From NCBI GenBank assembly GCA_007126035.1, contig SLCC01000022.1, positions 19,777-83,776 of the forward strand: a DNA stretch of 64,000 bases, in the 5' to 3' direction. This stretch comes from Gemmatimonadota bacterium (lineage in GTDB: Bacteria > Gemmatimonadota > Gemmatimonadetes > Longimicrobiales > RSA9). Shown in pieces: positions 28,601 to 45,557 of this stretch. The translations under genes and the position numbers were made by a program. Each line of letters starts with the position of its first letter. Position 1 is the first letter of the stretch. The notes under the pieces were generated by a model, which made no database searches, was not told where the DNA came from, and saw nothing but the letters and a program-made list of their open reading frames with translations.

Positions 28601-29182
28601 TCAGCGCTGGATTTCGAGAAGGGCGTCGAGCTGAGCCTGAACCGTCGATGGCGCGGTGCGGCTGAGCTCGGCGGAGCAGGGCGGCTCGAGTCTTCGTCCG
28701 GAGCAGATCATGGCCAGCGACCGGGTGCTGTCCCGGTCGAGCCAGAGCGTGTGGTAGCCTCGCGGTTCCCGCGGCGGGTAGGGCCTTTCCCTCCAGGCCG
28801 GTGCTCCGAACCGCCTGACGAACCTGTTCACGGCACGCTCCGGCCTTCGCCCCGCAGGCTCCAACTGCAGGCTGACAGAGACTGCGGCACCGTCGTGTAC
28901 GACTACCCGCACTTGACCGTCGGCGGTGATGCCTTCACAGAGGGTGACGGCAGGCGCCACCCCGCGTAGCCGACAGTTGAAGTTGCCCTGCGCCGCCGTT
29001 TCCGCCAGGACCGCTTCCTGTGACATGCCCAGGGTGAAGCCGGCGAGGCTGGTCGGCGGCGAGCCACCGCAGCCGGTGAGACACAGGCTCAGCACGAAAG
29101 CGAGGCACGACGGCCCGACCCTCCAGGCGCCTCTTCTCACCCCGGGCGGTATCACCCCGCCCATCGTTCTCAGAGTCTGCAT
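28601..29182 (-). CDS. Hypothetical lipoprotein
   Basis: Starting at ATG 29182 gives MQTLRTMGGVIPPGVRRGAWRVGPSCLAFVLSLCLTGCGG, which has a signal peptide and lipobox (LTGC). It is about 193 aa. No family was recognised. The 308-aa track ORF extends it over the neighbouring gene in another frame. Confidence 0.5.
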   Translation of the reverse strand: MQTLRTMGGVIPPGVRRGAWRVGPSCLAFVLSLCLTGCGGSPPTSLAGFTLGMSQEAVLAETAAQGNFNCRLRGVAPAVTLCEGITADGQVRVVVHDGAAVSVSLQLEPAGRRPERAVNRFVRRFGAPAWRERPYPPREPRGYHTLWLDRDSTRSLAMICSGRRLEPPCSAELSRTAPSTVQAQLDALLEIQR

Positions 29183-29187
29183 GGTCC

Positions 29188-29544
29188 TCAGAAGGCGCTC
29201 AGGATCAACCACTCTCCGAGGGTGCCCAGGGCAGACATCATGAGGGCGCCACCCAGTGCCCAGCCGAAGCTGTCGATGGTGAGTCGGTCGGTCAGGGCGT
29301 CTGTGAGCTTGAGGATGAGGGCGTTGATCAACCAGCGAGTGAGGAACGCCAGCAACCAAGCCAGCCCGAGGGTGACGATCCCGAGGAGGACGAAGAACAA
29401 CTGCCCCAGGAGGAAGTTGAGGATGCCGAACAGGGCGGCTACGACGATGGCGCTGCCGAAGCTCTTGACGTGGAAGCCGGGCAGTACGATGGCGGTGATC
29501 CATACTGCCAGGGACAGGATCAGCCATGAGAGGACGAGGCTCAT
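29188..29544 (-). CDS. DUF360 / phage-holin-4_2-family small membrane protein
   Basis: It is 118 aa with four hydrophobic helices. The sequence LSWLILSLAVWITAIVLPGFHVKSFGSAIVVAALFGILNFLLG is typical of the YvlD/DUF360 family. A GGAGGA Shine-Dalgarno sequence lies 5 nt upstream. Confidence 0.75.
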   Translation of the reverse strand: MSLVLSWLILSLAVWITAIVLPGFHVKSFGSAIVVAALFGILNFLLGQLFFVLLGIVTLGLAWLLAFLTRWLINALILKLTDALTDRLTIDSFGWALGGALMMSALGTLGEWLILSAF

Positions 29545-29608: not shown

Positions 29609-31918
29609 TCATGACGGGACAGCGGGCAGCACTACCGGCTCGACCGGATTCGAGGCTGGCTCCGAATCCACGGGTTTGATGGTGTCTGCGGCCTGGACGG
29701 TAGCCAGGGCGGCCAGGTTGACCACTGCCTCGGCGGTTCCGAACTGGATCATGTGGATGGGTCGGCGCGTGCCCACCAGGAGCGGACCCACCGTGACCGC
29801 ATCGCCCAGCAGTTCCAGGAGATGGACAGCCAGATGTCCTGACTGCAGGTCAGGGAAGATGAGAACGTTGGCATCCTGGCGCAGTTTGGAGAACGGGAAG
29901 AACTGTTCCCGGAACTCCCGTCCGAGAGCGGTGAGTAGCTGAATCTCACCGTCGATGGCCAGCTCCGGGTCCCTTTCCGTGGCCAGCTCGGTTGCCTTGC
30001 GGACCTTTCGGGCCAGGGGATGGTCCACGCTGCCATAGTTGGAGAAGGACAGCATGGCAACACGCGGCTCGATGCCCAGGGAGCGGACGAGGCTGGAGGA
30101 CATGACTGCCATGTCGGCCAGGGTCTGCGCATCCGGTTCAATGTTGACGGAGCAATCTGCCAGGAAGTAGGCGTCGTTGGGTCTCAGCACCATGTAGAGG
30201 CCGAAGATGCGGCGAACGTCGGGAGCGGGTCCTATGACTTCGAGGACTCTGCGGATCGATTCCGAGTAGGGTCCACTCATGCCTGCGATCACCAGGTCGG
30301 CGTCGCCCGTCTCCAGCATCATGCTCCCGAAGTAGACGGGATCGCGGAGCCGGGCGCGGGCCATGTCGCGGATCAGGCCCTCCCGGCCCCGTTTCCGGAA
30401 GAGCTGGTCCGCGAACTGTTCCAGACGCGGGTCATGGAGCGGGTCGATGACGGAGGTGCCCCTCAGTTCCAGGCCGTATCCAGCAGCGGCGCTCCGCACT
30501 TCGTCCTCATTGCCCAGGAGGATGGGTGATCCGATGCCCTCGTCCACCATGAGGGTGGCGGCGCCCAGAATGGCCCGGCTGGTGCCGTCGGGCAGGACGA
30601 TGCGTGGTTGTATCCGGCGGGCCTCCAGGATGACCTGGCGAAGCAGCTCGCGACCTGTCCCGACCCGGATCATGAGTCTGTCCTCGTAATGATCCTGCTC
30701 CACGGCCTGGGAAGCGACGTCCTCCCGGATGGCCTGTTCGGCAACGGCGGCGGACTCCCAGACCAGGATTCGCGGGTCCACGGGCTTCGGTAGCAGGTAC
30801 TCGGGCCCGAACTGGAAGACCTTGTCGCCGTATGCCCGGCTCACCTCTTCCGGCACTTCCTCCCGCGCCAGGTCGGCCAGGGCTCGGGCCGCGGCCAGCA
30901 TCATCCCTTCAGTGATCTGGGAGGCTCGCACGTCCAGGGCGCCCCTGAAGATGTATGGCGAGCTCAGATGGTCCACGATGGCGTTGGGGTCGGCGGACCG
31001 TGTGGTGAAGGCGATCACGTCGTGGCGGACCGTCCGGGCATGGTCGTACAGGATCTCGGGCTCCGGGGAGGCCAGGGCGATGACCACGGGGCGCGCGGCC
31101 ATGGAACGGAGCATCTCGGTTGTGAGCACACCGGGCGCCGAGGCGCCGAGAAAGATATCTGCTCCGCGCACGCCCTGATCGAGGGAGCGGAGATCACTCT
31201 CTCGGGCAAAGCGCATGTGGTGCGGCGTCAGATCGCTCCGCCCGGAATGGACGAGGCCGTAGCGGTCGTAGACCAGGATCTGCTCCGGGTCGATGCCCAG
31301 GGCGGTGAGGAGCCGCAGGCAGCCGAGTCCCACGGTCCCGGCTCCGGAGACCACTACCCGTACGTCCTTGGCCCGCTTGTCCACCAGGTCCAGAGCGTTG
31401 ATCACAGCGGCGACCACCGCCACGGCCAGGCCATACAGGTTCTCGTGGGAGACCGGCACCGGCAGGGCGGCCCTGAGGCGGTCGTATATGTCCAGGCCGT
31501 GTGGCAGGCTGATGTCCTGAAGGTTCACGCCGCCGAAGGAAGGAGCTATCGTGCGGACAGTGTCCACGAAACGATCCGGGTCGTGGGTGTCCAGCTCCAG
31601 GTCGAAGACGTCGAGATCCGCCAGGTGCTTGAAGAGGACGGCGATACCTTCCTGAAGAGGCTTGGCCGCCAGCGGCCCTACGTCGCCCAGTCCCGGCACT
31701 GCCGACCCATTGGTCACCAGGGCGATCAGGTTGCCGCGGGCGGTGTAGGTGTACGAGCTGGCAGGATCGGCCGCGATACGGCGAGCCGGGGCCAACGCGC
31801 CCGGCAGATATGCCAGCCGCATCTCCCGCGGGCTGAGGCAGGGCTTGCTCCCCTTCAACTCGATCTTGCCCGGCCGCCCGTTTTCGTGGTACTCGAGTGC
31901 CGACTTCTCGTCGATCAT
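29609..31918 (-). CDS. maeB: NADP-dependent malic enzyme MaeB (malic enzyme + phosphotransacetylase-like domain)
   Basis: The N-terminus MIDEKSALEYHENGRPGKIEL..., then NGSAVPGLGDVGPLAAKP and VVSGAGTVG, are followed by a C-terminal PTA-like domain (~330 aa). It is 769 aa from ATG 31918. The 958-aa track ORF is an upstream extension across the preceding gene. Confidence 0.85.
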   Translation of the reverse strand: MIDEKSALEYHENGRPGKIELKGSKPCLSPREMRLAYLPGALAPARRIAADPASSYTYTARGNLIALVTNGSAVPGLGDVGPLAAKPLQEGIAVLFKHLADLDVFDLELDTHDPDRFVDTVRTIAPSFGGVNLQDISLPHGLDIYDRLRAALPVPVSHENLYGLAVAVVAAVINALDLVDKRAKDVRVVVSGAGTVGLGCLRLLTALGIDPEQILVYDRYGLVHSGRSDLTPHHMRFARESDLRSLDQGVRGADIFLGASAPGVLTTEMLRSMAARPVVIALASPEPEILYDHARTVRHDVIAFTTRSADPNAIVDHLSSPYIFRGALDVRASQITEGMMLAAARALADLAREEVPEEVSRAYGDKVFQFGPEYLLPKPVDPRILVWESAAVAEQAIREDVASQAVEQDHYEDRLMIRVGTGRELLRQVILEARRIQPRIVLPDGTSRAILGAATLMVDEGIGSPILLGNEDEVRSAAAGYGLELRGTSVIDPLHDPRLEQFADQLFRKRGREGLIRDMARARLRDPVYFGSMMLETGDADLVIAGMSGPYSESIRRVLEVIGPAPDVRRIFGLYMVLRPNDAYFLADCSVNIEPDAQTLADMAVMSSSLVRSLGIEPRVAMLSFSNYGSVDHPLARKVRKATELATERDPELAIDGEIQLLTALGREFREQFFPFSKLRQDANVLIFPDLQSGHLAVHLLELLGDAVTVGPLLVGTRRPIHMIQFGTAEAVVNLAALATVQAADTIKPVDSEPASNPVEPVVLPAVPS

Positions 31919-34900
31919 CCTCTGCTCTCTTTCAGGGGATAACGCTGCAATGTCTCGTCGAGTGCTGTCCGGAACAGCGGGAGCGGGCGGGCCTGGAGAA
32001 TGTAGAGGTTCGATCCCTCCAGTGCGAACTCCAGGTCGAGCGGCTCGAAGAACGCTGCCTCCAGGTCCAGGGCCGTCTCGACCAGGGTCTCGAGCTCGGT
32101 GTACTCCAGAGCAGGTCGGAGGCGCTGATGGAATACGGTCTCGATGCGGCGGGTCCCGGAGCCGCGGGTGGCGTCGAAGACGCAGCGCTCCCGCTTGTCG
32201 CCTACCCGGTACCTGAGCTGGAGCGGACCGCCCCGCCGGTCGGTGCGGGCGATGTGGATCTCGTCGGCATCCACGGTGCCGGACACGATGCCCTGGCCCA
32301 GGCCCAGACCCACGTTCACGACCAGCTCCCGCATCTCGCCAGCCACCGCATCCACCGTCAGGACCACACCCGCCACCCGTGAGTCCACCATGCGCTGGAC
32401 CATGATCCCGCCGCCGCCGGGTGTTCCGGCAGTATTGCTCTGTCCCCGCTGGTGCAGGGCCCGTGGGCTCCACAGGGCCGCCCATGCCAAGCGGACGTGG
32501 CGGAGCACACTGTCGTCGCCGGTCACGTGTAGGAAGGTATCGAACTGCCCGGCCCAGGTGGCAGTGGGCCCGTCCTCCTCCAACGCGGAAGACCGGATGG
32601 CGACTGACGACGGCGCGCTGTCTTCCGCCGTCAGCCCATGGTAGCTGTCCAGGATCTCCGCCTCCATGCTCTCCGGGAACCTAGCATCGAGCCACAGCTT
32701 CCGGATGCAGCCGAACTTGCCCGAGCAGTCCAGCTCGGACCGGGCCAGCACCTGGTCGATGGCATCCTGGAGCGGAATCGTTTCGCCCGTCTGGACCCGG
32801 ACATGACTTCCCAGGGCCAGGTGGAACGCCCGATCGGTGATGACGAACCACGGCGGGACCATGCCGCTCGGCAGCACGCGGGCGACCTCGCCCAGGCTGG
32901 CGGCCTTGCGGCCGATGATCGACTCCATACCCAGCCCGCTCTCATCCCAGCCCACGATGAGACGGGAGTCGGCGGCAACCCGCCTGGCGCCCTCGATGGC
33001 CAGTGCGGCGGCGCGGGCCCGCTCCAGGACCTCCTGGTCACGTGGATCCCCTTCAGTGGGCGCGGCCTGGTCCATCCAACCGATGGCCCGGAGGGCGAAC
33101 AGGATTCGCGGGTCGCCGGGCTGCTGTCGTGCGAGGGCGTCCAGCTCATGGAGCAGGGCTGAGCGGAACTCCGCGAGCCGGTCGATGGAGAGGCGGTCCA
33201 GTTCGGGCAGGCTCCTGTCCGGCGAGGCGGTAGCGGCGCCGACCCGGCCGTCCGGGAGGCCCTGCTCCATGACCGACACTGAGCGGAGGCTCTCCCTCAG
33301 GCGGACGGCGGTCAGGCGTATGAAGAGCACGGGCAGGGGCTGGGTGAGCAGGGGCGTCACGGCCCTGGCGATCTGGACGGCAGCCCGCAACTGGTGCAGG
33401 AGGGCGACGACGGCTTGGTCCCGAGCGGTCTGCGCCGCCGGCCCAAGGCGCGGGCTGCGGCAGAGAACGTCCAGGAGCGCCCGTCGTTCGCTGGTGGCGG
33501 CAGCGGCGCCAGGCGCTGCCTGTCCGGAAAAGAGCTCCCGTACCGCGTACCGGGCCAGGGCAGGCCTGTCCATGCGCCGGAGAGCCCGGTTCAGTTGATG
33601 CGATACCCGCAGCAGGGCGCCGCGTGCTTCCAGCAGGGCTCGATCGTCCCTTGCGGCGCCCACTGCCCGTTCTGCGCTTCCCAGGTCGCGGAAGCCCTGG
33701 TGCAGGACCAGTGCTTCCCGGTCCGAGCCCAGCACGCTCAATGTCTCCGCATCCGAGTCCACGACCACCAGCTCGCCTTCCCGGACGTCAACCTCGCAGT
33801 CCCGGACCCTGGTCCAGCAGCGGACCTCCAGCGAGCGGACCCGACCGCTGCGCTCACGCAACTCGGTACGCCGGAGGGTGAGCACGTGCTCGTTGGGGCG
33901 GAGCTGTCGCCAACTCCCCTGGACGATGACGGATGGCTTCCCCAGCTCAAGGGCCAGGAGCCCGACGTGACTGAGGGTGCCGCCGCCAGTGGAGACGGCC
34001 GCTACCGAGCGGGCCAGGCATGGTGAGTCGGATGGCTGGATGGTCGGCGCGATGAATACGGCGCCTTCGAATTCAGCGGGGTCACGCCCCGGCTGGGCGA
34101 TCCGAACGATGCCCGACGCCCGGCCCGGGGCGGCAGGCAGGGCTCGGACGGAGCGTTCACCCGGGTACGGCGCCGATGGCGGCCATGGGTTCTTCGTGGC
34201 GAAGAGGTCGCGCACCTCGGCAACCCGATCCGGCTTCAGCTCCACCGGCTGGTCCTCGTCGGGACACCGGTAGTTGTCCCTGACCAGGAGCCGCATCAGC
34301 TCCGCGATGCGGATCTCCGCCGGCCGCTTCCAGGCGGTCGAATCCCGGTCCCTCACCCGGTAGGGGACGTCGCCCCTGGTGGCGAAGGCGAGGCGGGCCT
34401 TGCCGCGATCGTCGCGAAGGACGAAGAGGGTAGCGTCCCCATCGCGCAAGGCCAGAGTGGCACGCTCCACCGGATAGCCCTGGATGCTCCCCGCGGGAAG
34501 GAACCGCAACCAGCGCTCGAGCGGGCCTATCACTGAAGCCGTACGTATGGCCTCCCTGAGCCGCGCAGGTGGGCCGGCAAGGATGCGGGCCAGGCGGACA
34601 GCTTCATGCTCGCGCCGGTAGCTGTGGCGGGGGGCGGGCATGAGCTGGCCGTTCCGCGCCACCACCTCGCCCCGCACCACGGCGGAGCGGAGAGGGTCGA
34701 GTACCGCCCGCTCCAGGTCGAGCTGGCCGGCCCCACCGGTCCGCACCGTGGGTGCGGGCAATGGGAGGCGGATGCCGGCCCGACCGAGCTCCCTGCGGAC
34801 CCGACCGATCAGGCCACTGCCCGTGGTGCCAGGTAGCGGCTCGTCCTGGGGCGGGATGAGCCCGTGGCGCTCCAGGAAGTCCGCCCATCGGTCTGCCAGC

Positions 34901-36876
34901 TCGGCCCGCTCGTGCGCCGGCAGGTCCGCCGCCGCCAGCCTCCAGTCGAGTTCCATGAGGTGGGGAACGAGGCGCATCAACATGCTCGCCTTCTCCACGA
35001 TGTCGGATAGCTCGATGGCCCGCTCCTTGTCATAGCGGGCTCGAAGGCGAGTGCCGTCCAGGTCCACATGGAAGCCCAGGCGACGCAGGATGTGCTGGAT
35101 CCCGGACACGCCCAGGTCCGGATGCTCGGCCATCTCGTACTGGCTGACGGCGTAATACTCCAGGTCTATCATGCCCCCCCTGCGCGGCGGAGACAGATCG
35201 AGCCGGATGAAGGCGGGGTGGTTACGGAACGAAACGTAGAACTGGACCTCGGTGTCGTATACCAGGATCCGCACCGTGGGCAGGCTCGTGTATCCATGGA
35301 TGAGATGGTGCTTGAACGACTCCACCACGAGCCGCACCGCCAGCGGTAGGCTGGAACCTTCCTGCTCCTCGAAATCCAGGTACCGGACGCGTTGGACGAC
35401 GGCAGGATCGTGGCCGTCCCGGAGCAGTAGCAGGTCCACCGTCTGGTTGGCCGCGCCGCCGGAGCCGAAGAGCCGGAATGCATGCCTGAGACCACGCTGG
35501 TGCAGGTAGCGTTTCAGGCCGTGTAGGGTCCTCACCTCCTGTATCGACCCGGGGTCTTCGAACGCCTGGATCGAGTAGGCTACGTCCATTGGCAGGACGC
35601 TCCCGGGGTCGTCTGCCCGTTCCACCGCCCGGTCCACCTCCCGCCTCAGCTCAGCGAATCCGGCCGACACCTCGGCCGCCTCTGGATCGAAGCCGGAGAA
35701 CAGGCTCGTGTGGTCGGCGATGACACGTTCCAGCAGATCGAGGATACGGCCAGCGCGCTCCGCCGTAACCGGTGCCACCTCCAGGATCTCGCCCAGGAGG
35801 ACGGCGTGGTCCACGGAGAGGCGCCGGAACCTGGCTATCCGGTCACTGTCCAGCTCCGTTCCCACGGGTGTGGCTTCCTCGGTGCCCCGGGCCATCACCG
35901 CCCATCCCGTCCAGCGCCCGGCCGTCTCGAAATCTCGATCTATGACGCGCGCCTCGTCAGGCCTCAGGGCGAATGGGAAACTGCCCTCGATCCGCGTCAC
36001 CGTCACCGGCTCCGCCACCAGCTCATCGGCCACGCGGGGCCAGCCCAGGCGGGCGACGACGGCGGCGAGGCGGTCGCGGCCCAACACGGATTCAGACGCC
36101 TGCATGGTTTCCAGTGATTCCACCCGGCGAGCCAGACCCGGCGTGAGGGCGACGAGGTCTCCGTGAGTGGCACGGGTGTACGCCAGGTGGTGAGCCAGGG
36201 CACTGGCAGCCGTCGAGCCGAGGACCCGCCGGATTCGCTCTTCCGGCGCAGGCTCATCATCGGCGTCCAGCAATCGGGCCGCGAGAAGCCTGACAGGGAG
36301 CGGGATGGATGGCTCCAGGAACCGACCAATCGGGTCACCTGGGACCAGGGGCAGGCGCGGGTCGTCTACGCTGGAAAGGAGCTGGCCCAGGTCGTCCGGG
36401 ACCTGGGCGTCAGGGGCCGACGGCAGCGCGCAGGCCACTGCAAGGGCCAGGTCCAGATCGGACTCGATGTGACCATCGCGGGCCGCAGCGAGTGTCAGAC
36501 TTAATGCCTGGTCGCGGATCTCCTGCGACCGGGCGGACAGGAGCTCGACAAGCACGGGTGCCGATGAGTCGAGTGCGTGGGCCTGTTCCGCCAGGAGCCG
36601 GAAAAGAGCCGGTGCGGCACGGCTGCGGCTGTCCCGGAGGAGCGAGGCGAGGCGGACGAGGACTGGGACGGGCGATTCCGAGGGTGGCAGGGCCGCCTGG
36701 ATCTGGCCAAACGCCTCCTCCACGCGCTTGGGGTCTCCCAGGGCCACGCCCATATGAGACTCGATGGTCTCCAGATGGTCGGTAATATCGGGACTGGCGG
36801 CTGCGGTCGTCACGTCAGCAGCCACGGAACCAATCTCCCTGCCCTGGTTCTGTCCCATGCCAGTTCCCTCCGCCAC
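31915..36876 (-). CDS. Giant multidomain protein with a ~900-aa unassigned N-terminal region, a PEP-utilising-enzyme phosphohistidine swivel domain, a ~260-aa helical linker and a PPDK_N-type ATP-grasp domain
   Basis: This is a single uninterrupted 1,653-codon frame with GC3-rich codon use. The GTG at 36876 is the first possible start. ATG 36858 (M7) has a GGAGGG Shine-Dalgarno sequence 8 nt upstream and is the more likely start. Its stop TGA overlaps the maeB ATG (ATGA). Domain motifs are listed in the two sub-features below. Confidence 0.8.
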   Translation of the reverse strand: MAEGTGMGQNQGREIGSVAADVTTAAASPDITDHLETIESHMGVALGDPKRVEEAFGQIQAALPPSESPVPVLVRLASLLRDSRSRAAPALFRLLAEQAHALDSSAPVLVELLSARSQEIRDQALSLTLAAARDGHIESDLDLALAVACALPSAPDAQVPDDLGQLLSSVDDPRLPLVPGDPIGRFLEPSIPLPVRLLAARLLDADDEPAPEERIRRVLGSTAASALAHHLAYTRATHGDLVALTPGLARRVESLETMQASESVLGRDRLAAVVARLGWPRVADELVAEPVTVTRIEGSFPFALRPDEARVIDRDFETAGRWTGWAVMARGTEEATPVGTELDSDRIARFRRLSVDHAVLLGEILEVAPVTAERAGRILDLLERVIADHTSLFSGFDPEAAEVSAGFAELRREVDRAVERADDPGSVLPMDVAYSIQAFEDPGSIQEVRTLHGLKRYLHQRGLRHAFRLFGSGGAANQTVDLLLLRDGHDPAVVQRVRYLDFEEQEGSSLPLAVRLVVESFKHHLIHGYTSLPTVRILVYDTEVQFYVSFRNHPAFIRLDLSPPRRGGMIDLEYYAVSQYEMAEHPDLGVSGIQHILRRLGFHVDLDGTRLRARYDKERAIELSDIVEKASMLMRLVPHLMELDWRLAAADLPAHERAELADRWADFLERHGLIPPQDEPLPGTTGSGLIGRVRRELGRAGIRLPLPAPTVRTGGAGQLDLERAVLDPLRSAVVRGEVVARNGQLMPAPRHSYRREHEAVRLARILAGPPARLREAIRTASVIGPLERWLRFLPAGSIQGYPVERATLALRDGDATLFVLRDDRGKARLAFATRGDVPYRVRDRDSTAWKRPAEIRIAELMRLLVRDNYRCPDEDQPVELKPDRVAEVRDLFATKNPWPPSAPYPGERSVRALPAAPGRASGIVRIAQPGRDPAEFEGAVFIAPTIQPSDSPCLARSVAAVSTGGGTLSHVGLLALELGKPSVIVQGSWRQLRPNEHVLTLRRTELRERSGRVRSLEVRCWTRVRDCEVDVREGELVVVDSDAETLSVLGSDREALVLHQGFRDLGSAERAVGAARDDRALLEARGALLRVSHQLNRALRRMDRPALARYAVRELFSGQAAPGAAAATSERRALLDVLCRSPRLGPAAQTARDQAVVALLHQLRAAVQIARAVTPLLTQPLPVLFIRLTAVRLRESLRSVSVMEQGLPDGRVGAATASPDRSLPELDRLSIDRLAEFRSALLHELDALARQQPGDPRILFALRAIGWMDQAAPTEGDPRDQEVLERARAAALAIEGARRVAADSRLIVGWDESGLGMESIIGRKAASLGEVARVLPSGMVPPWFVITDRAFHLALGSHVRVQTGETIPLQDAIDQVLARSELDCSGKFGCIRKLWLDARFPESMEAEILDSYHGLTAEDSAPSSVAIRSSALEEDGPTATWAGQFDTFLHVTGDDSVLRHVRLAWAALWSPRALHQRGQSNTAGTPGGGGIMVQRMVDSRVAGVVLTVDAVAGEMRELVVNVGLGLGQGIVSGTVDADEIHIARTDRRGGPLQLRYRVGDKRERCVFDATRGSGTRRIETVFHQRLRPALEYTELETLVETALDLEAAFFEPLDLEFALEGSNLYILQARPLPLFRTALDETLQRYPLKESRG
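31972..32964 (-). other. Domain: PPDK_N-type ATP-grasp nucleotide-binding domain, aa ~1305-1635 of the giant ORF
   Basis: The matching motifs are IIGRKAASLGEV (compare GGKNASLGEM), VPPWFVITDRAF, VAIRSSALEEDGPTATWAGQFDTFLHV (compare VAVRSSATAEDLP.ASFAGQ.ETFLNV), WAALWSPRALHQR and IMVQRMVDSRVAGVVLTVDAV...NVGLGLGQGIVSGTVDADE. These follow the N-terminal domain of PEP synthase closely. Confidence 0.75.
33742..34164 (-). other. Domain: PEP-utilising enzyme mobile (swivel) phosphohistidine domain, aa ~905-1045 of the giant ORF
   Basis: The stretch ALPAAPGRASGIVRIAQ...FEGAVFIAPTIQPSDSPCLARSVAAVSTGGGTLSHVGLLALELGKPSVIV...VREGELVVVDSDAETLSVLG aligns by eye with the PpsA/PPDK/EI swivel domain (G.A.G......ILV...T.P......A.A.VT..GG.TSHAAI.AR..GIP). 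The predicted catalytic His is residue 970 (codon 33967..33969). Confidence 0.75.
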
Positions 36877-37112
36877 TCGAACGCCGCGAGGTGACGCTCG
36901 CCGGGCCGCTACTGAAGCCTATCGGCAAAGAGTGCTCGGGACAAGGAGTCGCCGCGGCCGGGCCCGACGGGGCACCAGATAGCCCGTTTTTCCGACGGCC
37001 ACCGGACCGGGAGTCTGGCACGGGCATCCCTGCCCGTACGCCATACGTATTGACCTGCCTTCCCCGCCATCTCTAGCTTCCCGGGACAGGCGTATCCCGC
37101 TAACCCTTTCCC

Positions 37113-38792
37113 ATGGAAACAGCCATGTCACATCCCCCCGTTGTCGGGACTACCGAACAGGCGGCTGCGGCGCCGCCTTTCGCATACCAGGACCCCTACC
37201 CCCTGGGTCAGGATACCACGCGCTACCGGAAGCTGGATGGTTCGGAGGCGTACGTGTCCGTAGAGCGGTTCGCCCACAAGGATGTCTTGAGGGTCGACCC
37301 GGAAGCACTGACGGTTCTGACGCGTGAAGCGATGCGGGATGTCTCCTTCCTGCTCAGACCGAGTCACAACGAGCAGGTGGCGACGATCCTCTCCGACCCG
37401 GAGGCGTCAGCCAATGACCGGGGCGTGGCATTGGCGTTCCTGCGCAACGCCGTGGTCTCGGCGCGCTTCGAGCTGCCGTACTGTCAGGATACCGGCACGG
37501 CCACCGTCGTGGCGAAGAAGGGACAGCAGGTCTGGACGGGGGGTGGCGACGAGGAGGCCATCGCCCGGGGCGTCTACCGCACCTACACGGAGGAGAACCT
37601 CCGCTACTCCCAGACGGTGCCGCTGGACATGTACCGGGAGAAGAACACGGGAACCAACCTACCGGCCCAGATCGACATCCAGGCCATTGACGGGGCTGAG
37701 TACAAGTTCCTCTTCATGGCCAAGGGTGGGGGCAGCGCCAACAAGACGATGCTCTTCCAGGAGACCAAAGCGCTGCTCACGCCCGAGAAGCTGGAGGCGT
37801 ACCTGGTCGAGAAGATGAAGTCACTGGGGACGGCGGCCTGCCCACCGTATCACATAGCTTTCGTGATCGGGGGTACCAGCGCCGACGCGGTCATGAAGAC
37901 CGTGAAGATGGCCAGCGCCCGCGAGCTGGATGAACTGCCCACCACCGGGAACGAGCACGGTCGCGCGTTCCGGGACGTGGAGCTGGAGGACCGGCTCCTG
38001 CGAGCAGCGCACGGTCTGGGGATCGGGGCCCAGTTCGGGGGCAAGTACTTCGCCCACGACGTGCGGGTGATCCGCCTCCCCCGGCACGGCGCCAGCTGTC
38101 CGGTGGGCATGGCCGTCTCCTGCTCGGCGGACCGGAACGTCCGGGCTAAGATCACGCGGGACGGCCTGTTCGTGGAGGAGCTGGACCGTGATCCAGGGCG
38201 CCTGCTGCCTGAGCAGTACCGGGAAGGTACCCACGCCCACGGCCACCGCGTGGACCTGTCAAAGCCCATCGAGGAAACGCTCCAGGAGCTGTCGTCCCTC
38301 GACGTAGGTGACGCCCTGCTCCTCACCGGAACCATCGTGGTGGCCCGGGACATGGCCCATGCCCGGTTCAAGGAGATCCTGGACCGGGGCGAGCCGCTAC
38401 CCGGGTACCTCAAGGAGTACCCGGTATACTACGCCGGCCCGGCAAAGACTCCGCCGGGAAAGGCCTCCGGCTCCTTCGGCCCCACCACGGCGGGCCGGAT
38501 GGACAGCTACGTAGACCTGCTCCAGAGCCACGGCGGCAGTCGCATCATGATTGCCAAGGGCAACCGCAGCCAGCAGGTGACGGACGCCTGCAGGAAGCAC
38601 GGCGGCTTCTACCTGGGCTCCATCGGTGGGCCCGCATCCCTGCTGGCGGAGGAGAACATCAAGAAGGTAGAGTGCATCGATTTCCCCGAACTGGGGATGG
38701 AGGCGGTCTGGAAGATCGAGGTGGAAGAATTCCCGGCCTACATCCTGGTGGATGACAAGGGAAACGACTTCTACAAGCAACTGGGGCTGTAG
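37113..38792 (+). CDS. fumA: Class I (Fe-S) fumarate hydratase, fused alpha/beta type
   Basis: It carries the motifs [44 protein letters not shown] and C-terminal [13 protein letters not shown]...YYAGPAKTP...GPTTAGRMD. It is 559 aa. ATG 37125 is an alternative start. Confidence 0.85.
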
Positions 38793-39635: not shown

Positions 39636-40343
39636 ATGATGCTCGGAGGCGCCGTGATGGCTAGGGAGGGGCTGGTCCTGGAAGGGATTGCGCGGCGGTT
39701 CGGCCGAAAGTGGGCGCTACGAGGTACGAGCGTGCGTGCGGAGGCGGGGACCGCGATCGCGCTGATGGGGCACAACGGCAGCGGTAAGACGACGCTGCTG
39801 CGGATCGTGGCGACGACGCTGCGACCGACCCGTGGCAGCGGCACTGTCCTTGGCCACGACCTGTTGAATGAGGCTGCCGCGATCCGGGAGCACGTGGGCG
39901 TGTTGTACCACGCTGCCGGTGTGTATGGTGACCTGACGGCCCGTGAGAACCTGGAGTTCTCGCGCAAGATGTGGGGTGGTCGTGCGGTGGTGGGAGTGGA
40001 TGCGGCGCTGGATCGAGTGGGATTGTCATACGCGGCGGGTGAGCGTGCGGCTGGTTTCTCGTCGGGTATGACGCGTCGCCTGGCGCTGGCGCGGGTGGTC
40101 ATGCGCCCGCCGACGATCCTGCTACTGGACGAGCCTTATGCGAGCTTCGACGCGGACGGCATCGAGTTGGTGAACGAGCTGGTCCGGGAGACAGCGGACG
40201 GCGGCGGTATCGTCCTGATAGCGACCCATGACCCGGAGCGGTCGAACGGCGTGGTGGACCGTGTGATCACCCTTCATGAGGGGCGCGTGGTCCCGGAGGG
40301 TGTTGCCGCGGGCCCTAAGCTGGTGGCGGAGGCGGTGCGATGA
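39636..40343 (+). CDS. ccmA: Heme exporter ATP-binding protein CcmA
   Basis: It has an ABC ATPase Walker A (GHNGSGKTTLLR), signature (FSSGMTRRLALA) and Walker B (LLLDEP). It is the first gene of the ccm operon. Confidence 0.8.
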   Translation: MMLGGAVMAREGLVLEGIARRFGRKWALRGTSVRAEAGTAIALMGHNGSGKTTLLRIVATTLRPTRGSGTVLGHDLLNEAAAIREHVGVLYHAAGVYGDLTARENLEFSRKMWGGRAVVGVDAALDRVGLSYAAGERAAGFSSGMTRRLALARVVMRPPTILLLDEPYASFDADGIELVNELVRETADGGGIVLIATHDPERSNGVVDRVITLHEGRVVPEGVAAGPKLVAEAVR

Positions 40344-41026
40344 GCTTCCGTAGCGAGACGAACCGGGTGGCGGCGGTGGCCTGGAAGGACCTGACCACGG
40401 AGCGGCGCTCGAAGGCCAACTTCAACGCGGTGCTGTTCCTGGCGGCCCTCATGCTGCTCATGTTCGGTTTCGCCCTGGGTCCGGACGCGGCGTCGTTGCG
40501 GCTGGCGGCGGCGGGCATCGTATGGCTTACGATAATGTTCAGTGGGAATCTGGCGTTCCATCGGTCGTACCAGGTCGAGCTGGAAGGCGGCGCCCTGGAG
40601 ACACTGCTCCTCTATCCCGGCGCCCGCAGCTCTATCTTCCTGGGCAAGCTGATCGCGAACCTGGTGTTCGTGTTGCTGGTGCTGATGGCCCTGATCCCGA
40701 TCGCCATCGTTCTCTACGACATCCCGGTTGGTCCGTCGATTCCGTTGCTGTTCCTGGTCATCTTCCTGGGCACGTTCGGGTTCGTGACCCTGGGGACGTT
40801 CTACGCGTCCATGGCGAGTCGGAGCCGTGCCAGGGAGGTCCTGCTTCCCCTTCTGTTGTTCCCCATGCTGATTCCGGTGCTGCTGGCTTCGGTGGAGGCG
40901 ACGGGCGCCCTGTTGCAAGGGGACCCCATGGGCGAGGCGGGGCGGTGGATCAGGCTGCTGGTGTCCTTTGATGTCATCTTCCTGGGCGCGTCCATCCTGG
41001 CGTTCGGGGCCGTGATCGAGGAGTGA
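40340..41026 (+). CDS. ccmB: Heme exporter membrane protein CcmB
   Basis: A 228-aa polytopic membrane protein between ccmA and ccmC. It shows the CcmB-like pattern (F..E...G.LE.LLL.P). It has an ATGA overlap with ccmA. Confidence 0.8.
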   Translation: MSFRSETNRVAAVAWKDLTTERRSKANFNAVLFLAALMLLMFGFALGPDAASLRLAAAGIVWLTIMFSGNLAFHRSYQVELEGGALETLLLYPGARSSIFLGKLIANLVFVLLVLMALIPIAIVLYDIPVGPSIPLLFLVIFLGTFGFVTLGTFYASMASRSRAREVLLPLLLFPMLIPVLLASVEATGALLQGDPMGEAGRWIRLLVSFDVIFLGASILAFGAVIEE

Positions 41027-41027
41027 G

Positions 41028-41747
41028 ATGCAAGAATTGAAAGCACTTTCGGAGGAGCGGGCGCCGAAGTGGCTGATCGGCTTGACGGCGATCGCGTTCA
41101 TGGCCGTGGCGGGCGCCCAGGTCTTCGGCTTCATCACATCGCCGGCGGCGGAGCAGTATCAGCACTCGCAGAAGATCATGTACGTGCACGTGCCGGCGGC
41201 ATGGAACGCGTTCCTGGCCTTCATCGTGGTATTCTGGGCGAGCCTGGTCTATCTCTGGAAGCGTAGCGAGGGTGCGGACCTGTTGGCGGAGTCGGCCGCG
41301 GAGGTCGGTGCGGTGTTCACGGGGCTGACCCTCCTGCTCGGCTCGATCTGGGGGAAGTGGGCATGGGGGGTGTGGTGGACGTGGGATCCCCGGCTGACGT
41401 CGACGGCGGTGCTGTTCATCATCTTCGTGGGTTACCTGGCGCTGCGTTCCTTCACGGAGGACCCGGAGCGGCGGGCCACGTGGAGCGCTGGGGTGGGGAT
41501 CTTCGGAGCGCTGAACGTGCCCATCGTCTACATGTCCGTGCGGTGGTGGCGCACGTTGCACCAGGTGCAGTCGTCGCCGGAGACGATGTCGGCGGAGTAC
41601 GTGACAGCACTGCGAGTGAACGGGATAGCCTTCCTGCTGCTCCTGGTCGCCGTCCTGGGTTGGCGGTACCGGGCGGCGCGGATCCAGCGTCGGGCTGAGG
41701 CACTGCACGAGGAAGCGATACTCGAGGGGAGGCAGGTCCATGTTTGA
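41028..41747 (+). CDS. ccmC: Heme exporter protein CcmC
   Basis: It has the tryptophan-rich WWD motif WGKWAWGVWWTWDPRLT and conserved His-containing loops. It is 239 aa. Confidence 0.85.
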   Translation: MQELKALSEERAPKWLIGLTAIAFMAVAGAQVFGFITSPAAEQYQHSQKIMYVHVPAAWNAFLAFIVVFWASLVYLWKRSEGADLLAESAAEVGAVFTGLTLLLGSIWGKWAWGVWWTWDPRLTSTAVLFIIFVGYLALRSFTEDPERRATWSAGVGIFGALNVPIVYMSVRWWRTLHQVQSSPETMSAEYVTALRVNGIAFLLLLVAVLGWRYRAARIQRRAEALHEEAILEGRQVHV

Positions 41748-41886
41748 GACGGATGTCAACGTCTGGAACTACGTGATCGGGGCGTACGCCGTAAGTTGGC
41801 TGACGGTTATCGGCTATACGCTTCGCCTGTGGGTCCTGAACCGGCGTGCCTCACGGTTCGCCGCTGAGCTTGGAGGCGACGTATGA
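41740..41886 (+). CDS. ccmD: Heme exporter protein CcmD (48 aa; below the ORF-track size cutoff)
   Basis: Hand translation from ATG 41740 gives MFETDVNVWNYVIGAYAVSWLTVIGYTLRLWVLNRRASRFAAELGGDV. This has a single TM helix and a basic tail. It overlaps the ccmC stop by 8 nt and the ccmE start by ATGA, which is the canonical ccmD position. Confidence 0.6.
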   Translation: MFETDVNVWNYVIGAYAVSWLTVIGYTLRLWVLNRRASRFAAELGGDV

Positions 41887-42320
41887 ACAAGCGGTTCATC
41901 GGGGTGTTCGGCACCGTCCTGGTCCTGACTGGTTTCGGGTATCTGATCTGGGGCGGCCTGGGCGGGAGCCTGGTCTATTTCGTCACGCCCACGGAGCTCC
42001 TGGCCCGCGGCGAGGCTGCGTACGAAACGCCGGTCCGACTGGCGGGTAACGTGGTGCCCGGCTCCGTGAACTGGAACGCGCGGGAGCTGGATCTTCGCTT
42101 CCATCTGAGTGATGGAGAAACGGACATCGAGGTGTGGTCGAAAGGTGCTCCGCCGGCCATGTTCCAGGACACGATGGGTGTGGTGGTGGAAGGACGCTAC
42201 AACCGGGCGGGCATCTTCGAGTCGTCGAGCGTGATGGTGCGGCACTCGAACGAGTACAAGGCGCCGCCGGAAGGTCACCGGCCGGCGGACACCTACGAAG
42301 CATTGATCCGGGAGGAGTAG
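41883..42320 (+). CDS. ccmE: Cytochrome c-type biogenesis heme chaperone CcmE
   Basis: It has an N-terminal TM anchor, an OB-fold core (RLAGNVVPGSV...L.F.L.D....I.V...G..P..F) and a C-terminal His motif (VRHSNEYKAPPE, compare HDENY.P). Confidence 0.8.
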   Translation: MNKRFIGVFGTVLVLTGFGYLIWGGLGGSLVYFVTPTELLARGEAAYETPVRLAGNVVPGSVNWNARELDLRFHLSDGETDIEVWSKGAPPAMFQDTMGVVVEGRYNRAGIFESSSVMVRHSNEYKAPPEGHRPADTYEALIREE

Positions 42321-42325
42321 CGTCA

Positions 42326-44373
<2,048 letters not shown>

Positions 44374-44377
<4 letters not shown>

Positions 44378-44979
44378 GTTGGAAGCGGGCCGGCATAGCG
44401 ATGCTGGTGGGGATACCCCTGCTCATGCTACTGGCGTGGGGCATGGTCCGTGGCGATCCGCGGATCATCCCGTCGCCGCTGATCGATCAGCCTGCGCCCG
44501 ACTTCGAGCTGCCGGTCATGGCGCCGGCACGGACGCCGGACGGTGAGGACGTGACCGGGGAGGTGGTGCGTCTGTCCGACCACCTGGGTGAGGTGGTGGT
44601 GCTCAATTTCTACGCATCGTGGTGCGTGCCCTGCCGGATCGAACACCCGGCGCTGGTCCGTACCGCCGCCCGCTACCGGGACCGTGGCGTCCAGTTCTAC
44701 GGTGTCGTCTACCAGGACACGCCCCAGGCCATCCGGACCTATCTCCGTCAGATGGGTGCGAAGGGGTATCCCAGCCTGCTGGACCCCGGCCAGCGTGTGG
44801 CCATCGACTGGGGTCTGGCCGGCGTGCCGGAGACGTTCATCGTCGGCAAGGACGGCCGGATCAGTAAGAAGATCTTCAGCGCGGTGACGGAGCAGGAGTT
44901 GGTTACGGAGATCGAGAGGCTGTTGGCCGAGCCGTCGCCCGCCGCGGCGCCGGCATCGACCCCGGAGGTGTCATTTTGA
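44374..44979 (+). CDS. ccmG: Thiol:disulfide interchange protein CcmG/DsbE
   Basis: It has a TM anchor plus a thioredoxin fold with active site WCVPC and a GVPETF motif. It has an ATGA overlap with ccmF. Confidence 0.8.
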
Positions 44980-45437
44980 AGCGGATCATGATGGTTCTGT
45001 CGCTCGTCGCCATGGCTGTTCCAGCAGCGGCGCAGGACGCGCAGCCGGAAGGGATCTACATAGGTCAGGGGCCGCTAACCAATGCCGTGGAGGAGGCGAG
45101 GGCGGCCAAGCTGGCATCCCAGCTCCAGTGCCCGGTCTGCCAGGGCCAATCCATCGCCGCGTCGCCGGCGCCCATGGCCAGACAGATGAAGGACCTCATC
45201 CGGACCCAGGTCTCAGAGGGCTACACGGATGAGGAGGTCAGGCAGTACTTCATGAGCAAGTACGGCGAGTGGGTGCTTCTGGAGCCCAAGGCCGCCGGCT
45301 TCAATCTGCTGGTCTACATCCTGCCCGTGGCTGCGTTGCTCGCCGGGATCGGGCTGATGTTTGTCCTGGTGCGCCGGTGGTCGACCCCGGCTCCCGCCCC
45401 GGCGGAGGCAGCCGAGGGCGACGACGCCGCAGGCTGA
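44976..45437 (+). CDS. ccmH: Cytochrome c-type biogenesis protein CcmH
   Basis: It has a signal peptide, the motif LQCPVCQGQSIAASPAPMARQM (LRCxxCQ type) and a C-terminal TM helix. It is 153 aa. Confidence 0.75.
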   Translation: MKRIMMVLSLVAMAVPAAAQDAQPEGIYIGQGPLTNAVEEARAAKLASQLQCPVCQGQSIAASPAPMARQMKDLIRTQVSEGYTDEEVRQYFMSKYGEWVLLEPKAAGFNLLVYILPVAALLAGIGLMFVLVRRWSTPAPAPAEAAEGDDAAG

Positions 45438-45491
45438 GGCGGGCGACGCGGGCTGCGCGGTAACCCTCGCGCGGCTCCGGCGGGCAGGTTA

Positions 45492-45520
45492 GCTTCCCCG
45501 CCAGGACGGCGCGGGGAAGC
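45492..45520 (+). terminator. Hairpin after the ccm operon
   Basis: GCTTCCCCGC (45492..45501), a 9-nt loop, then GCGGGGAAGC (45511..45520). No U-tract follows. Confidence 0.35.
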
Positions 45521-45557
45521 GCGCTGCCGACGACCAAACCAGACTCCCGGGCGCCCC

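Follow-up and report, generated by a model that had tools for sequence, protein, structure and literature searches.

A giant swivelling-histidine dikinase-like protein and a malic enzyme-like partner form a conserved two-protein module in more than ten bacterial phyla

The locus

The window analysed here is a stretch of 64,000 nucleotides from a Gemmatimonadota genome (contig SLCC01000022.1), in which a giant gene is followed by a gene resembling malic enzyme MaeB and is divergent from a class I fumarase (Table 1). In public gene calls the giant gene begins with the ATG of position 36858 and encodes 1647 aa (P0001, 100% identical). This is probably its true start, and the residue numbers given for the regions in Table 1 and for the invariant residues of the giant protein are counted from it. 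The TGA stop of the giant gene overlaps the ATG of the MaeB-like gene (junction sequence ...GGATGATCG...), and a 958-aa reading frame at 29609..32485 is merely an in-frame upstream extension of the latter. Measured from the GTG, the gap between the giant gene and the fumarase is 236 nt; between the database-called starts, 36858 and 37125, it is 266 nt. An earlier note on this DNA had described the 1653-aa reading frame, the ATGA overlap, the divergent class I fumarase and the 236-nt gap, and all of these sequence-level claims hold.

Table 1. Coordinates of genes, protein domains and other features within the window.
Feature	Position	Strand	Detail
Class I (Fe-S) fumarate hydratase	37113..38792	+	Fumerase + Fumerase_C; divergent from giant gene
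Divergent intergenic region, giant gene / fumarase	36877..37112	.	236 nt
Giant gene	31915..36876	-	1653 aa from GTG at 36876
N-terminal all-helical repeat domain	36031..36792	-	aa 23-276; 31% mean pairwise identity
Alpha+beta 'core' domain	34849..36030	-	aa 277-670; conserved
Middle mixed alpha/beta region	34174..34848	-	aa 671-895; 34% mean pairwise identity
Phospho-histidine swivel domain (PEP-utilizers, PF00391)	33724..34173	-	
Helical linker, His domain to ATP-grasp	32959..33723	-	aa 1046-1300; 29% mean pairwise identity
C-terminal ATP/AMP-binding ATP-grasp (PPDK_N, PF01326)	31981..32922	-	7.5e-57
ATGA stop/start overlap, giant gene / MaeB-like gene	31915..31918	-	
MaeB-like gene	29609..31918	-	769 aa; Pfam malic + Malic_M + PTA_PTB
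Malic-enzyme-like half of MaeB-like protein	30674-31906	-	aa 5-415
PTA-like half of MaeB-like protein	29684-30643	-	aa 426-745

Domain architecture of the giant protein

Pfam recognises two domains in the giant protein, PF00391 (aa 937-993) and PF01326 (aa 1319-1632), placing the His domain before the ATP-grasp in a reversal of the PEP synthase order that the earlier note does not mention, and the precomputed Pfam domains of 86 out of 86 full-length homologues comprise only the same two. The PF00391 match reaches 29.8 bits, above its cut-off of 23.1, and its motif, STGGGTLSH964VGL, is invariant across 65 sequences (His964 codon at 33967-33969) and aligns with the catalytic-His region (GGMTSH) of a solved PEP synthase. 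The His domain is also the sole part of the giant protein with fold matches in the PDB, namely PPDK, RPH and the pyruvate kinase C-terminal domain, and the nearest solved relatives of the ATP-grasp are the PEP synthases 9DAE and 2OLS (about 2e-39). Judged by its sequence, the ATP-to-His half is intact. A search for the PEP/pyruvate TIM-barrel PF02896 in the giant protein gave no match at E<=0.01.

The core domain (~400 residues) finds no match in Pfam, PDB sequences or PDB folds, despite a structure model of pLDDT 90 that depicts an alpha+beta fold with at least eight strands. Homologues of the core are scarce, with only 156 representatives among 1.84 billion proteins. Mean identity within the core is 48%, and of the roughly 35 residues that never vary, some 16 are charged or His. 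H446, K449, R450, H453 and Q454 line one helix face; further invariants are E537, H547, R552, D554, GGM561-563, D565, H579, R608, D610, K611, D638 and W639. Such a set looks more like a small-ligand or Mg2+ site than a docking surface, and the core is the putative phosphoryl-acceptor site. Ahead of it, the helical domain (aa 23-276) is a candidate for partner docking; behind it, the middle region (aa 671-895) matches no family. The combination described in the earlier note, of a PEP-synthase-type ATP-grasp, a phospho-His domain and a novel acceptor-side domain, is thus borne out by PF01326, PF00391 and the unmatched core.

Conservation of the locus

The MaeB-like gene lies directly downstream of the giant gene in all 78 informative related genome loci, drawn from more than ten phyla. 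Conversely, among 47 metagenome loci retrieved via a MaeB-like-specific motif alone, independently of the giant gene, 46 carry the giant gene directly upstream. The pair is present in 7/7 homologue look-ups, the 4-nt stop/start overlap of the window recurs in 48 of 77 related loci, and all other neighbours vary among loci. The coupling of the two genes is far beyond chance: together they are a conserved, undescribed two-protein system, universal in this sense, and not a fumarate-malate-pyruvate pathway.

The fumarase itself matches Fumerase and Fumerase_C in Pfam (E-values 5.4e-80 and 1.9e-79) and scores 896 bits against the NCBIfam FumA model, under the equivalog cut-off of 1105. Beside the giant gene it is found in 0/80 related loci, the adjacency occurring solely in the source organism's own contigs. 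The 236-nt (266-nt) divergent region holds no consensus promoter, terminator or Rfam match; relatives, which lack the fumarase at this place, do not share it. The fumarase is an incidental neighbour in this lineage only, outside the conserved module. Linkage to a maeB-type gene, as the earlier note had it, is therefore near-universal in both directions, whereas its 'fumarate-malate-pyruvate trio' falls apart; co-occurrence across genomes speaks for the MaeB-like gene and against the fumarase.

A link to C4/C3 metabolism survives in weaker but recurrent form. Genes for Na+-oxaloacetate decarboxylase lie nearby at eight loci from the genome scan and look-ups and at two metagenome loci. These belong to two phyla (Acidobacteriota, Ignavibacteria), differ in arrangement and make up only about 10% of loci. 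Carbonic anhydrase is another recurring neighbour.

Five distant relatives retain the order core, His domain, ATP-grasp. In three of these (P0210, P0215, P0217) the cassette is preceded by WD40 or FHA domains, and in the other two (P0211, P0218) by no recognised N-terminal domain. The gene context covered P0210, P0211 and P0218, none of which has a MaeB-like neighbour. Partner specificity may therefore follow the N-terminus of the protein, and the FHA- and WD40-bearing relatives suggest that the cassette may act on proteins, not on a metabolite.

The MaeB-like partner

In the partner, malic enzyme N-terminal, NAD-binding and PTA-like domains occupy one chain (PF00390, PF03949, PF01515). The catalytic residues of MaeB are K107, E149, D174(/D175) and Y52 (Harding et al. 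2021, PMC7902834). The general acid/base Lys, K107, has given way in 80/80 linked copies to a non-basic, mostly hydrophobic residue (M, I, V, L, A, T or F). K replaces E149 in 71/80 and N replaces D175 in 75/80, most copies carry T for N300, and the NN pair has become (L/V)D. Two metal-site acids (E149, D175) and three substrate/nicotinamide Asn are thereby lost, while Tyr52 is kept in 78/80. The window copy shows K107->I92, E149->Q134, D174->E159, D175->N160, K250->H234, N300->S284 and NN->V315 D316, with Y52 present as Y37; it departs from the clade majority at Q134 (not K), H695 (not N) and E513 (not R). All these catalytic, metal-site and Asn residues are retained in two unlinked MaeB copies from module-bearing loci. 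At L004 and L060 such a separate canonical MaeB sits beside the module, which shows that the cell does not rely on the linked copy as its malic enzyme. The NCBIfam model for NADP-dependent malic enzyme scores the MaeB-like protein at 638.7 bits against a cut-off of 1178. The malic-enzyme active site appears disabled and remodelled; the earlier assignment as maeB, converting malate to pyruvate, finds no support, and a supply of pyruvate by the partner is not to be assumed.

The partner is nevertheless still constrained and is predicted to be ligand-competent. The Rossmann GxGxxG, D233 and R242 are retained, but the NADP 2'-phosphate contact K250 is Q in 69/77 linked copies, leaving cofactor binding uncertain. 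Of 12 CoA contacts, nine persist, namely R535, K538 (as a basic residue), Y576, R581, N616, Q683, N718, P735 and Q748, each of them in 63-73 of 73 copies. Given the changes in the acetyl pocket (T614->A, Y721->L/M, K722->H/Q), the ligand may be something other than acetyl-CoA. With Y576 kept and V746 as L, the PTA-like domain is likely non-catalytic, as in MaeB, where this domain binds acetyl-CoA. Identity across phyla is 66% for the malic-enzyme-like half and 60% for the PTA-like half, and the replacement residues are themselves conserved in the linked clade (K134, E159, N160, D316), a pattern explained no less well by a new catalytic or substrate-binding role than by a passive sensor.

Comparison with known systems

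PEP synthase (pyruvate, water dikinase, EC 2.7.9.2) is the best match for the ATP-grasp (1e-61 to NCBIfam models) and shares the phospho-His swivel domain, with the catalytic His motif aligned (2OLS, 9DAE). PEP synthase, however, runs ATP-grasp, His, acceptor domain, whereas the giant protein has His before ATP-grasp, no C-terminal PF02896 barrel and 900 extra N-terminal residues of unrecognised fold, and its score of 209 bits lies below both family cut-offs, 598 and 740 (TIGR01418 / NF005057). Closer in layout is alpha-glucan, water dikinase GWD1 (EC 2.7.9.4), likewise a very large single chain running from acceptor-side domains through a His domain to a C-terminal ATP-binding domain (PMC13553574). 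Its CBM45 starch-binding modules and all-helical central domain of 20 helices differ from the alpha+beta core; Pfam finds no CBM in the giant protein, and GWD lacks a pseudo-enzyme partner.

VadK (Rv1127c) of Mycobacterium tuberculosis has about 490 aa in PPDK domain order; the giant protein is far longer and its order differs. VadK is a PPDK-derived kinase without a PEP domain that is reported to autophosphorylate, to bind methylcitrate-cycle enzymes and to modulate metabolic enzymes (PMC13400623). The two share the PPDK-type ATP-grasp and His without a PEP/pyruvate domain, a compatible domain content, although neither a core domain nor a MaeB-like partner is reported for VadK. By analogy, it may serve as a precedent for a regulatory PPDK-derived kinase. 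Rifampin phosphotransferase (RPH) and PigC/RedH-type enzymes relay the phosphoryl group through the same pair of domains and bind the acceptor with a third domain specific to each family (PMC4844700), but their order is ATP-grasp, acceptor domain, His, and that acceptor domain is unrelated. The giant protein scores 155 against an RPH cut-off of 999, a match covering its ATP-grasp only, and 156 against 1300 for the PigC/RedH type. Two-component dikinases in which another subunit carries the acceptor are reported (PMC12167813).

Finally, the partner aligns end-to-end with the hybrid malic enzyme MaeB (Bdellovibrio 6ZNG; E. coli MaeB) at 630 bits, the alignment to 6ZNG spanning residues 5-748, with the same ME plus PTA-like architecture and most acetyl-CoA contacts kept. 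It differs from MaeB in that linked copies have lost the catalytic Lys, E149, D175, three Asn and the NADP 2'-phosphate Lys.

Proposed mechanism and alternatives

We tentatively favour, at somewhat less than even chances, a swivelling-His dikinase working with a CoA-ester-sensing pseudo-malic enzyme at the oxaloacetate/pyruvate/PEP node. The PEP-synthase-type ATP-grasp would bind ATP and charge His964 on the mobile domain, which would then swing toward the N-terminal side of the giant protein, where the invariant His/Lys/Arg/Asp/Glu cluster of the core would bind acceptor and Mg2+. The MaeB-like protein would be a sensory or regulatory subunit, docked via the helical N-terminus, and the acyl-CoA-driven rotary switch of MaeB would gate phosphoryl transfer. 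By default, one would guess that the reaction is pyruvate to PEP. The physical complex, the direction of regulation and the phosphoryl acceptor are what we infer here. Of the two ideas in the earlier note, that the giant protein performs the step from pyruvate to PEP is possible; that it regulates the node fits the evidence somewhat better.

The alternatives can be ranked. Firstly, the giant protein may be a protein-directed kinase, phosphorylating the MaeB-like partner or a recruited client. It would then be a regulatory device resembling VadK or PTS Enzyme I and would have no small molecule as acceptor. This is unlikely, yet it draws on the fusion of the core-His-ATP-grasp cassette to FHA or WD40 in distant proteins of 1,700-4,700 aa, on the reported binding of methylcitrate-cycle enzymes by the PPDK-derived His kinase VadK (PMC13400623), on a helical-repeat N-terminus typical of protein binding and on the missing PEP/pyruvate domain. 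It sits poorly with the ligand-site character of the core invariants, and no invariant Ser/Thr/His acceptor unique to the clade is found in the linked MaeB-like proteins, S163 occurring in only 62/80.

Secondly, and with a smaller chance still, both proteins could be catalytic, the remodelled malic-enzyme-like pocket binding a C4/C3 acid (oxaloacetate, malate or enolpyruvate) and either receiving the phosphoryl group of P~His964 as acceptor site or processing the phosphorylated product; a new ATP-dependent reaction would result, and conversion of oxaloacetate or malate to PEP without PEPCK would be an example. The higher conservation of that half, the retained Tyr52, the conserved replacements (E159, N160, D316 and, in 71/80, a Lys in place of the metal ligand), the separate acceptor subunits reported for two-component dikinases (PMC12167813) and the recurrent oxaloacetate decarboxylase and carbonic anhydrase genes all point this way. 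Against it, no known malic enzyme chemistry survives the loss of the Lys, E149, D175 and all three substrate-contacting Asn; the invariant core is left without a role; and the cassette also occurs without a MaeB-like partner.

Thirdly, the pathway reading of the earlier note, in which functional fumarase and MaeB enzymes and a new type of PEP synthase under shared divergent control carry fumarate through malate and pyruvate to PEP, is largely refuted and very improbable. The gene order and 236-nt divergent gap in the window, the intact class I fumarase by Pfam and the PEP synthase-like ATP-grasp would suit it, but the fumarase is missing from 80/80 related loci, K107, E149, D175, N300 and NN are lost in all or nearly all linked copies, L004 and L060 keep a canonical MaeB next to the module, PF02896 is absent from the giant protein, and neither promoter nor RNA element was found in the divergent gap. 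Lastly, adjacency without functional meaning, with unrelated genes kept together by operon inertia, is scarcely credible when the pairing holds in both directions in more than ten phyla while every other neighbour changes, the stop/start overlap is conserved, and the MaeB-like clade is distinct and seen here almost exclusively beside the giant gene (46/47).

Implications

If the model of a dikinase with a pseudo-malic enzyme subunit is true, it would add a fourth acceptor-domain type among swivelling-His dikinases, a new protein fold and a pseudo-enzyme descendant of MaeB that reuses the acyl-CoA sensor. Further-reaching, and a long shot, is that the pair forms a new ATP-dependent enzyme system for central carbon metabolism in uncultured anaerobic, soil and sediment lineages, in which the remodelled, metal-free malic-enzyme pocket and the core together perform an undescribed reaction (for example, trapping an oxaloacetate/pyruvate enolate as PEP independently of PEPCK and PEPS), or else that the rotary acyl-CoA switch of MaeB has been co-opted to gate a dikinase. 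Such co-option would clearly exemplify how an enzyme of central metabolism becomes a dedicated pseudo-enzyme subunit.

Automatic annotation currently labels the giant gene 'pyruvate, water dikinase' or 'PEP/pyruvate-binding domain-containing protein' and its partner 'NADP-dependent malic enzyme'. As a result, PEP synthesis and malate decarboxylation are probably attributed to the pair when metabolism is reconstructed for Acidobacteriota, Krumholzibacteriota, Eisenbacteria, Ignavibacteria, Syntrophobacter, Anaeromyxobacter and other MAG-only groups; residue and domain content speaks against the second and lends no support to the first. As it comprises just two genes with clearly defined catalytic residues, the module is directly testable.

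Gene layout and conservation of the linkage

In the window, the TGA of the giant gene overlaps the ATG of the MaeB-like gene (GGATGATCG) and the giant gene diverges from a class I fumarase across 236 nt, a layout that the earlier note had described correctly. Start codons are ambiguous for the giant gene (GTG 36876 or ATG 36858) and for the fumarase (ATG 37113 or ATG 37125), and public gene calls take the inner start of each, giving a 266-nt gap and a giant protein of 1647 aa (P0001, the database copy, 100% identical to that of the window). An ORF of 958 aa at 29609..32485 extends the MaeB-like gene upstream in frame. Promoter and terminator scans and Rfam searches of the divergent gap and its surroundings returned no consensus promoter, terminator or Rfam match, and no further copy of PPDK_N, MaeB or fumarase is encoded in the window. 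The two small genes 3' of the MaeB-like gene are not conserved in relatives, and the cytochrome c maturation genes and lgt beyond the fumarase appear unrelated to the finding reported here.

Features of the locus, its proteins and related loci. Residues of the giant protein are counted from ATG 36858, except for Pfam ranges, which follow ORF numbering; BbMaeB, Bdellovibrio MaeB.
Feature	Position	Strand	Description
Giant gene	31915..36876	-	1653 codons as ORF
MaeB-like gene	29609..31918	-	769 aa; malic, Malic_M, PTA_PTB domains
Class I fumarase	37113..38792	+	Fumerase and Fumerase_C, both ~1e-79
Two small genes	28601-29544	-	118-aa Phage_holin_4_2-family membrane protein; 193-aa protein without family
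Cytochrome c maturation system I (complete), lgt	~39657-46442 (from coordinates of locus L001)	+	ccmA, B, C, E, F, H, thioredoxin-like gene
Helical-repeat domain	aa 23-276		AlphaFold2 model
Alpha+beta core	aa 277-670		AlphaFold2 model
Mixed region	aa 671-895		AlphaFold2 model
His domain	aa 896-1045		AlphaFold2 model
PF00391	aa 937-993		Pfam, ORF numbering
PF01326	aa 1319-1632		Pfam, ORF numbering
MaeB-like Q134	31517-31519		Q for K at former metal ligand
MaeB-like H695	29834-29836		H for N at N718 position
MaeB-like E513	30380-30382		E for R at K538 position
Linked copies, K107 site	BbMaeB K107		M/I/V/L/A/T/F in 80/80, never Lys
Linked copies, E149 site	BbMaeB E149		K in 71/80; Q in window
Linked copies, D174 site	BbMaeB D174		E in 72/80
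Linked copies, D175 site	BbMaeB D175		N in 75/80
Linked copies, K250 site	BbMaeB K250		Q in 69/77
Linked copies, N300 site	BbMaeB N300		T in 61/77
Linked copies, NN site	BbMaeB NN pair		(L/V)D
Second, unlinked MaeB	L004:7419-9719	-	adjoins module
Second, unlinked MaeB	L060:15228-17459	-	adjoins module
Oxaloacetate decarboxylase loci	L038:2623-7312, L028, L079, L051, L005, L008, L026, L041, L123, L151		alpha and beta genes near module
P0210			1739 aa; cassette and WD40 repeats
P0211			4331 aa; cassette; adjoins type I restriction, HNH and Fic genes
P0215			4717 aa; cassette, FHA and Big_9 domains
P0217			2986 aa; cassette and FHA domain
P0218			3177 aa; cassette

A word-indexed search with the giant protein returned 91 relatives, nearly all of ~1650 aa, and all seven context look-ups, down to 32% identity, placed a ~750-aa malic + Malic_M + PTA_PTB gene immediately downstream. 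Three truncated homologues (P0088, P0090 and P0091) share this architecture, their sequences being incomplete or mis-started. Family-specific peptides scanned over 185,579 species genomes gave 148 relatives, from which 80 loci were kept, all in MAGs, spanning Acidobacteriota, Krumholzibacteriota, Eisenbacteria, Ignavibacteria, Bacteroidota, Calditrichia, Syntrophobacter, Anaeromyxobacter, Gemmatimonadetes, Zixibacteria, Phycisphaerae, Methylomirabilota and Elusimicrobiota. By tblastn, the MaeB-like gene lies on the same strand directly 3' of the giant gene in 78 of these; in the other two the contig ends at the giant gene's stop. Closed MAG chromosomes with the module include OY762941.1, OY776568.1 and OY969724.1. 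Of 77 loci, 48 have a stop-to-start distance of -4 and three one of -14, and in most others it is <50 nt. The linkage was also tested from the partner's side: metagenome contigs were scanned with a DNA pattern encoding the clade-specific peptide PVFHENLY, which found 53 MaeB-like loci. Among the 47 of these with 180 nt or more of upstream sequence, the 3' end of the giant gene immediately precedes the MaeB-like gene in 46. The sole exception, L093, is a 1248-nt contig with 744 nt upstream lacking the giant gene, whose MaeB-like product belongs to the clade (69% identical, signature M/K/E/N); the exception could be genuine, or the short contig could be chimeric. The linkage to a maeB-type gene, which the earlier note had described in the window, is real and universal, and the partner is obligate and translationally coupled.

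Fumarase, which had been cast as a partner in a fumarate-malate-pyruvate trio, is absent from all 80 genome loci, and neither all-against-all clustering of flank ORFs nor Pfam searches of the 124 nearest neighbours revealed a third conserved gene. The module therefore consists of exactly two genes, with the fumarase adjacency lineage-specific. PADLOC found no match to a defence system apart from one at 16 bits, attributable to chance.

Architecture of the giant protein

Pfam recognises two domains and no other family in the giant protein. Their order is opposite to that in PEP synthase: here the His domain comes first and the ATP-grasp second, as comparison with solved 9DAE confirms; this reversal is absent from the earlier note. 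Judged from sequence, the ATP-grasp and the phospho-carrier His are intact, with His964 invariant within STGGGTLSHVGL; the PEP/pyruvate barrel is absent and an extra domain is strongly constrained. A confident AlphaFold2 model of aa 1-1100 (pLDDT 86, pTM 0.82) resolves the N-terminal part into four regions. Mean conservation is 48% in the core, 47% in the His domain and 51% in the ATP-grasp, and 29-34% in the helical N-terminus, middle region and linker. Five core invariants (H446, K449, R450, H453 and Q454) are spaced i, i+3/4, i+7/8 and therefore fall on one helix face; together with E537, H547, R552, D554, GGM561-563, D565, H579, R608, D610, K611, D638 and W639, they give the core a composition that we infer to be typical of a phosphate/Mg2+ site.

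Outside the giant-protein family no relative of the core could be detected. Its profile gave only chance-level matches to PDB sequences (best E = 0.057), Pfam found no consistent match across 44 core sequences, and a word-indexed profile search returned gene fragments only. Foldseek searches of the PDB matched nothing but the His domain of the 1100-residue model, and for a core-only model (pLDDT 90, pTM 0.86) the best match had E = 0.03 and TM <=0.18. Descent from a duplicated, degenerate ATP-grasp was rejected, hhalign of core plus middle against the family's ATP-grasp, His and linker regions giving a probability <1%. An exhaustive phmmer search over 1.84 billion representatives matched only 156 proteins. 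The few distant ones, of 1,739-4,717 aa, keep the order core, PEP-utilizers, PPDK_N, and no MaeB-like gene adjoins the three that were placed (P0210, P0211 and P0218; loci L089, L191 and L192); core, His domain and ATP-grasp therefore form a reusable cassette. The MaeB-like partner goes with the subfamily having the helical N-terminus.

The malic-enzyme-like partner

The MaeB-like protein aligns end to end with Bdellovibrio MaeB (6ZNG) at 630 bits, and its score of 639 lies far below the NCBIfam malic-enzyme cut-off of 1178. Catalytic residues were taken from Harding et al. (PMC7902834). Linked copies keep Y52, the GxGxxG motif, D233 and R242 and replace the positions listed in the table. The NN pair of BbMaeB corresponds to N466/N467 of human ME2. 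Every canonical residue is kept in the second, unlinked MaeB that adjoins the module at two loci; at one of these, L004, a NiFe-hydrogenase/NADH-dehydrogenase-like cluster follows immediately downstream. There is no sign of decay in the ME-like half, where pairwise identity averages 66% (60% in the PTA-like half) and the substituted residues are themselves conserved. We conclude that malic-enzyme chemistry has in all probability been lost and that the domain has apparently acquired another constrained role.

The catalytic Asp and Ser/Thr are missing from the PTA-like half, where L and Y occupy their positions, as in inactive MaeB PTA domains; a PTA-catalysed route from acyl-phosphate to acyl-CoA was rejected on that ground. 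Nine of 12 acetyl-CoA contacts (R535, K538 as a basic residue, Y576, R581, N616, Q683, N718, P735 and Q748) are kept in at least 63 of 73 copies, and the acetyl pocket has changed at T614 (to A), Y721 (to L/M) and K722 (to H/Q). The partner is most unlikely to be a malic enzyme but keeps ligand-binding scaffolds. At Q134, H695 and E513 the window copy and L004, the relative closest to it, depart from the residues found in most of the clade, so this sub-lineage may behave unlike the bulk of the family.

Relation to known systems

PEP synthase is the nearest relative of the ATP-grasp by sequence; however, its domain order differs, PF02896 is missing here and the score is too low for membership. 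By architecture the nearest system is glucan, water dikinase, in which acceptor-side domains are followed by His and ATP-binding domains (PMC13553574), although that enzyme carries CBM45 modules and an all-helical central domain, whereas the core described here is alpha+beta. The partner is closest to MaeB, from which its catalytic set excludes it. We rate the locus as a swivelling-His dikinase, a known kind of enzyme, whose acceptor-side fold is new and whose partner is a dedicated pseudo-malic enzyme, found so far only in uncultured lineages. Full-text searches of an incomplete literature collection yielded no description of the pairing; the single paper there that mentions both 'malic enzyme' and 'pseudoenzyme' deals with microcompartment loci.

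Proposed mechanism and alternatives

The reading that we favour, tentatively and at somewhat less than an even chance, places a His964 dikinase at the oxaloacetate/pyruvate/PEP node. ATP would charge His964, as in PEPS, PPDK, GWD and RPH; the His domain would then swing to the core, where the acceptor would be held; and the pseudo-MaeB, docked probably on the helical N-terminus, would gate transfer by way of the 70-degree rotation that acyl-CoA is reported to drive in MaeB (PMC7902834). What suggests this node is that the alpha and beta genes of Na+-translocating oxaloacetate decarboxylase lie close to the module at eight genome-scan or look-up loci and two metagenome loci (upstream on the same strand in Acidobacteriota, downstream and convergent in Ignavibacteria), with added support from carbonic anhydrase, canonical MaeB and CitMHS genes that occasionally lie nearby. 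Our default guess for the chemistry is that pyruvate would be converted to PEP.

That the cassette is instead a protein-directed kinase is unlikely, though the FHA and WD40 domains of distant relatives and the precedent of VadK (PMC13400623) point that way. It is distinctly improbable that a neo-functionalised ME pocket joins catalysis, a role supported by the 66% conservation of the ME-like half and by its conserved replacement residues. The three-step fumarate-malate-pyruvate-PEP pathway of the earlier note is very doubtful: its fumarase link did not hold, and its malate-to-pyruvate step is not supported, K107 never being Lys in 80 linked copies. What stands of that interpretation is the MaeB-type linkage and the novel acceptor domain, borne out by a core matching neither Pfam nor PDB sequences or folds. 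That the adjacency is meaningless is scarcely credible, given a partner directly 3' at every genome locus where the contig continues.
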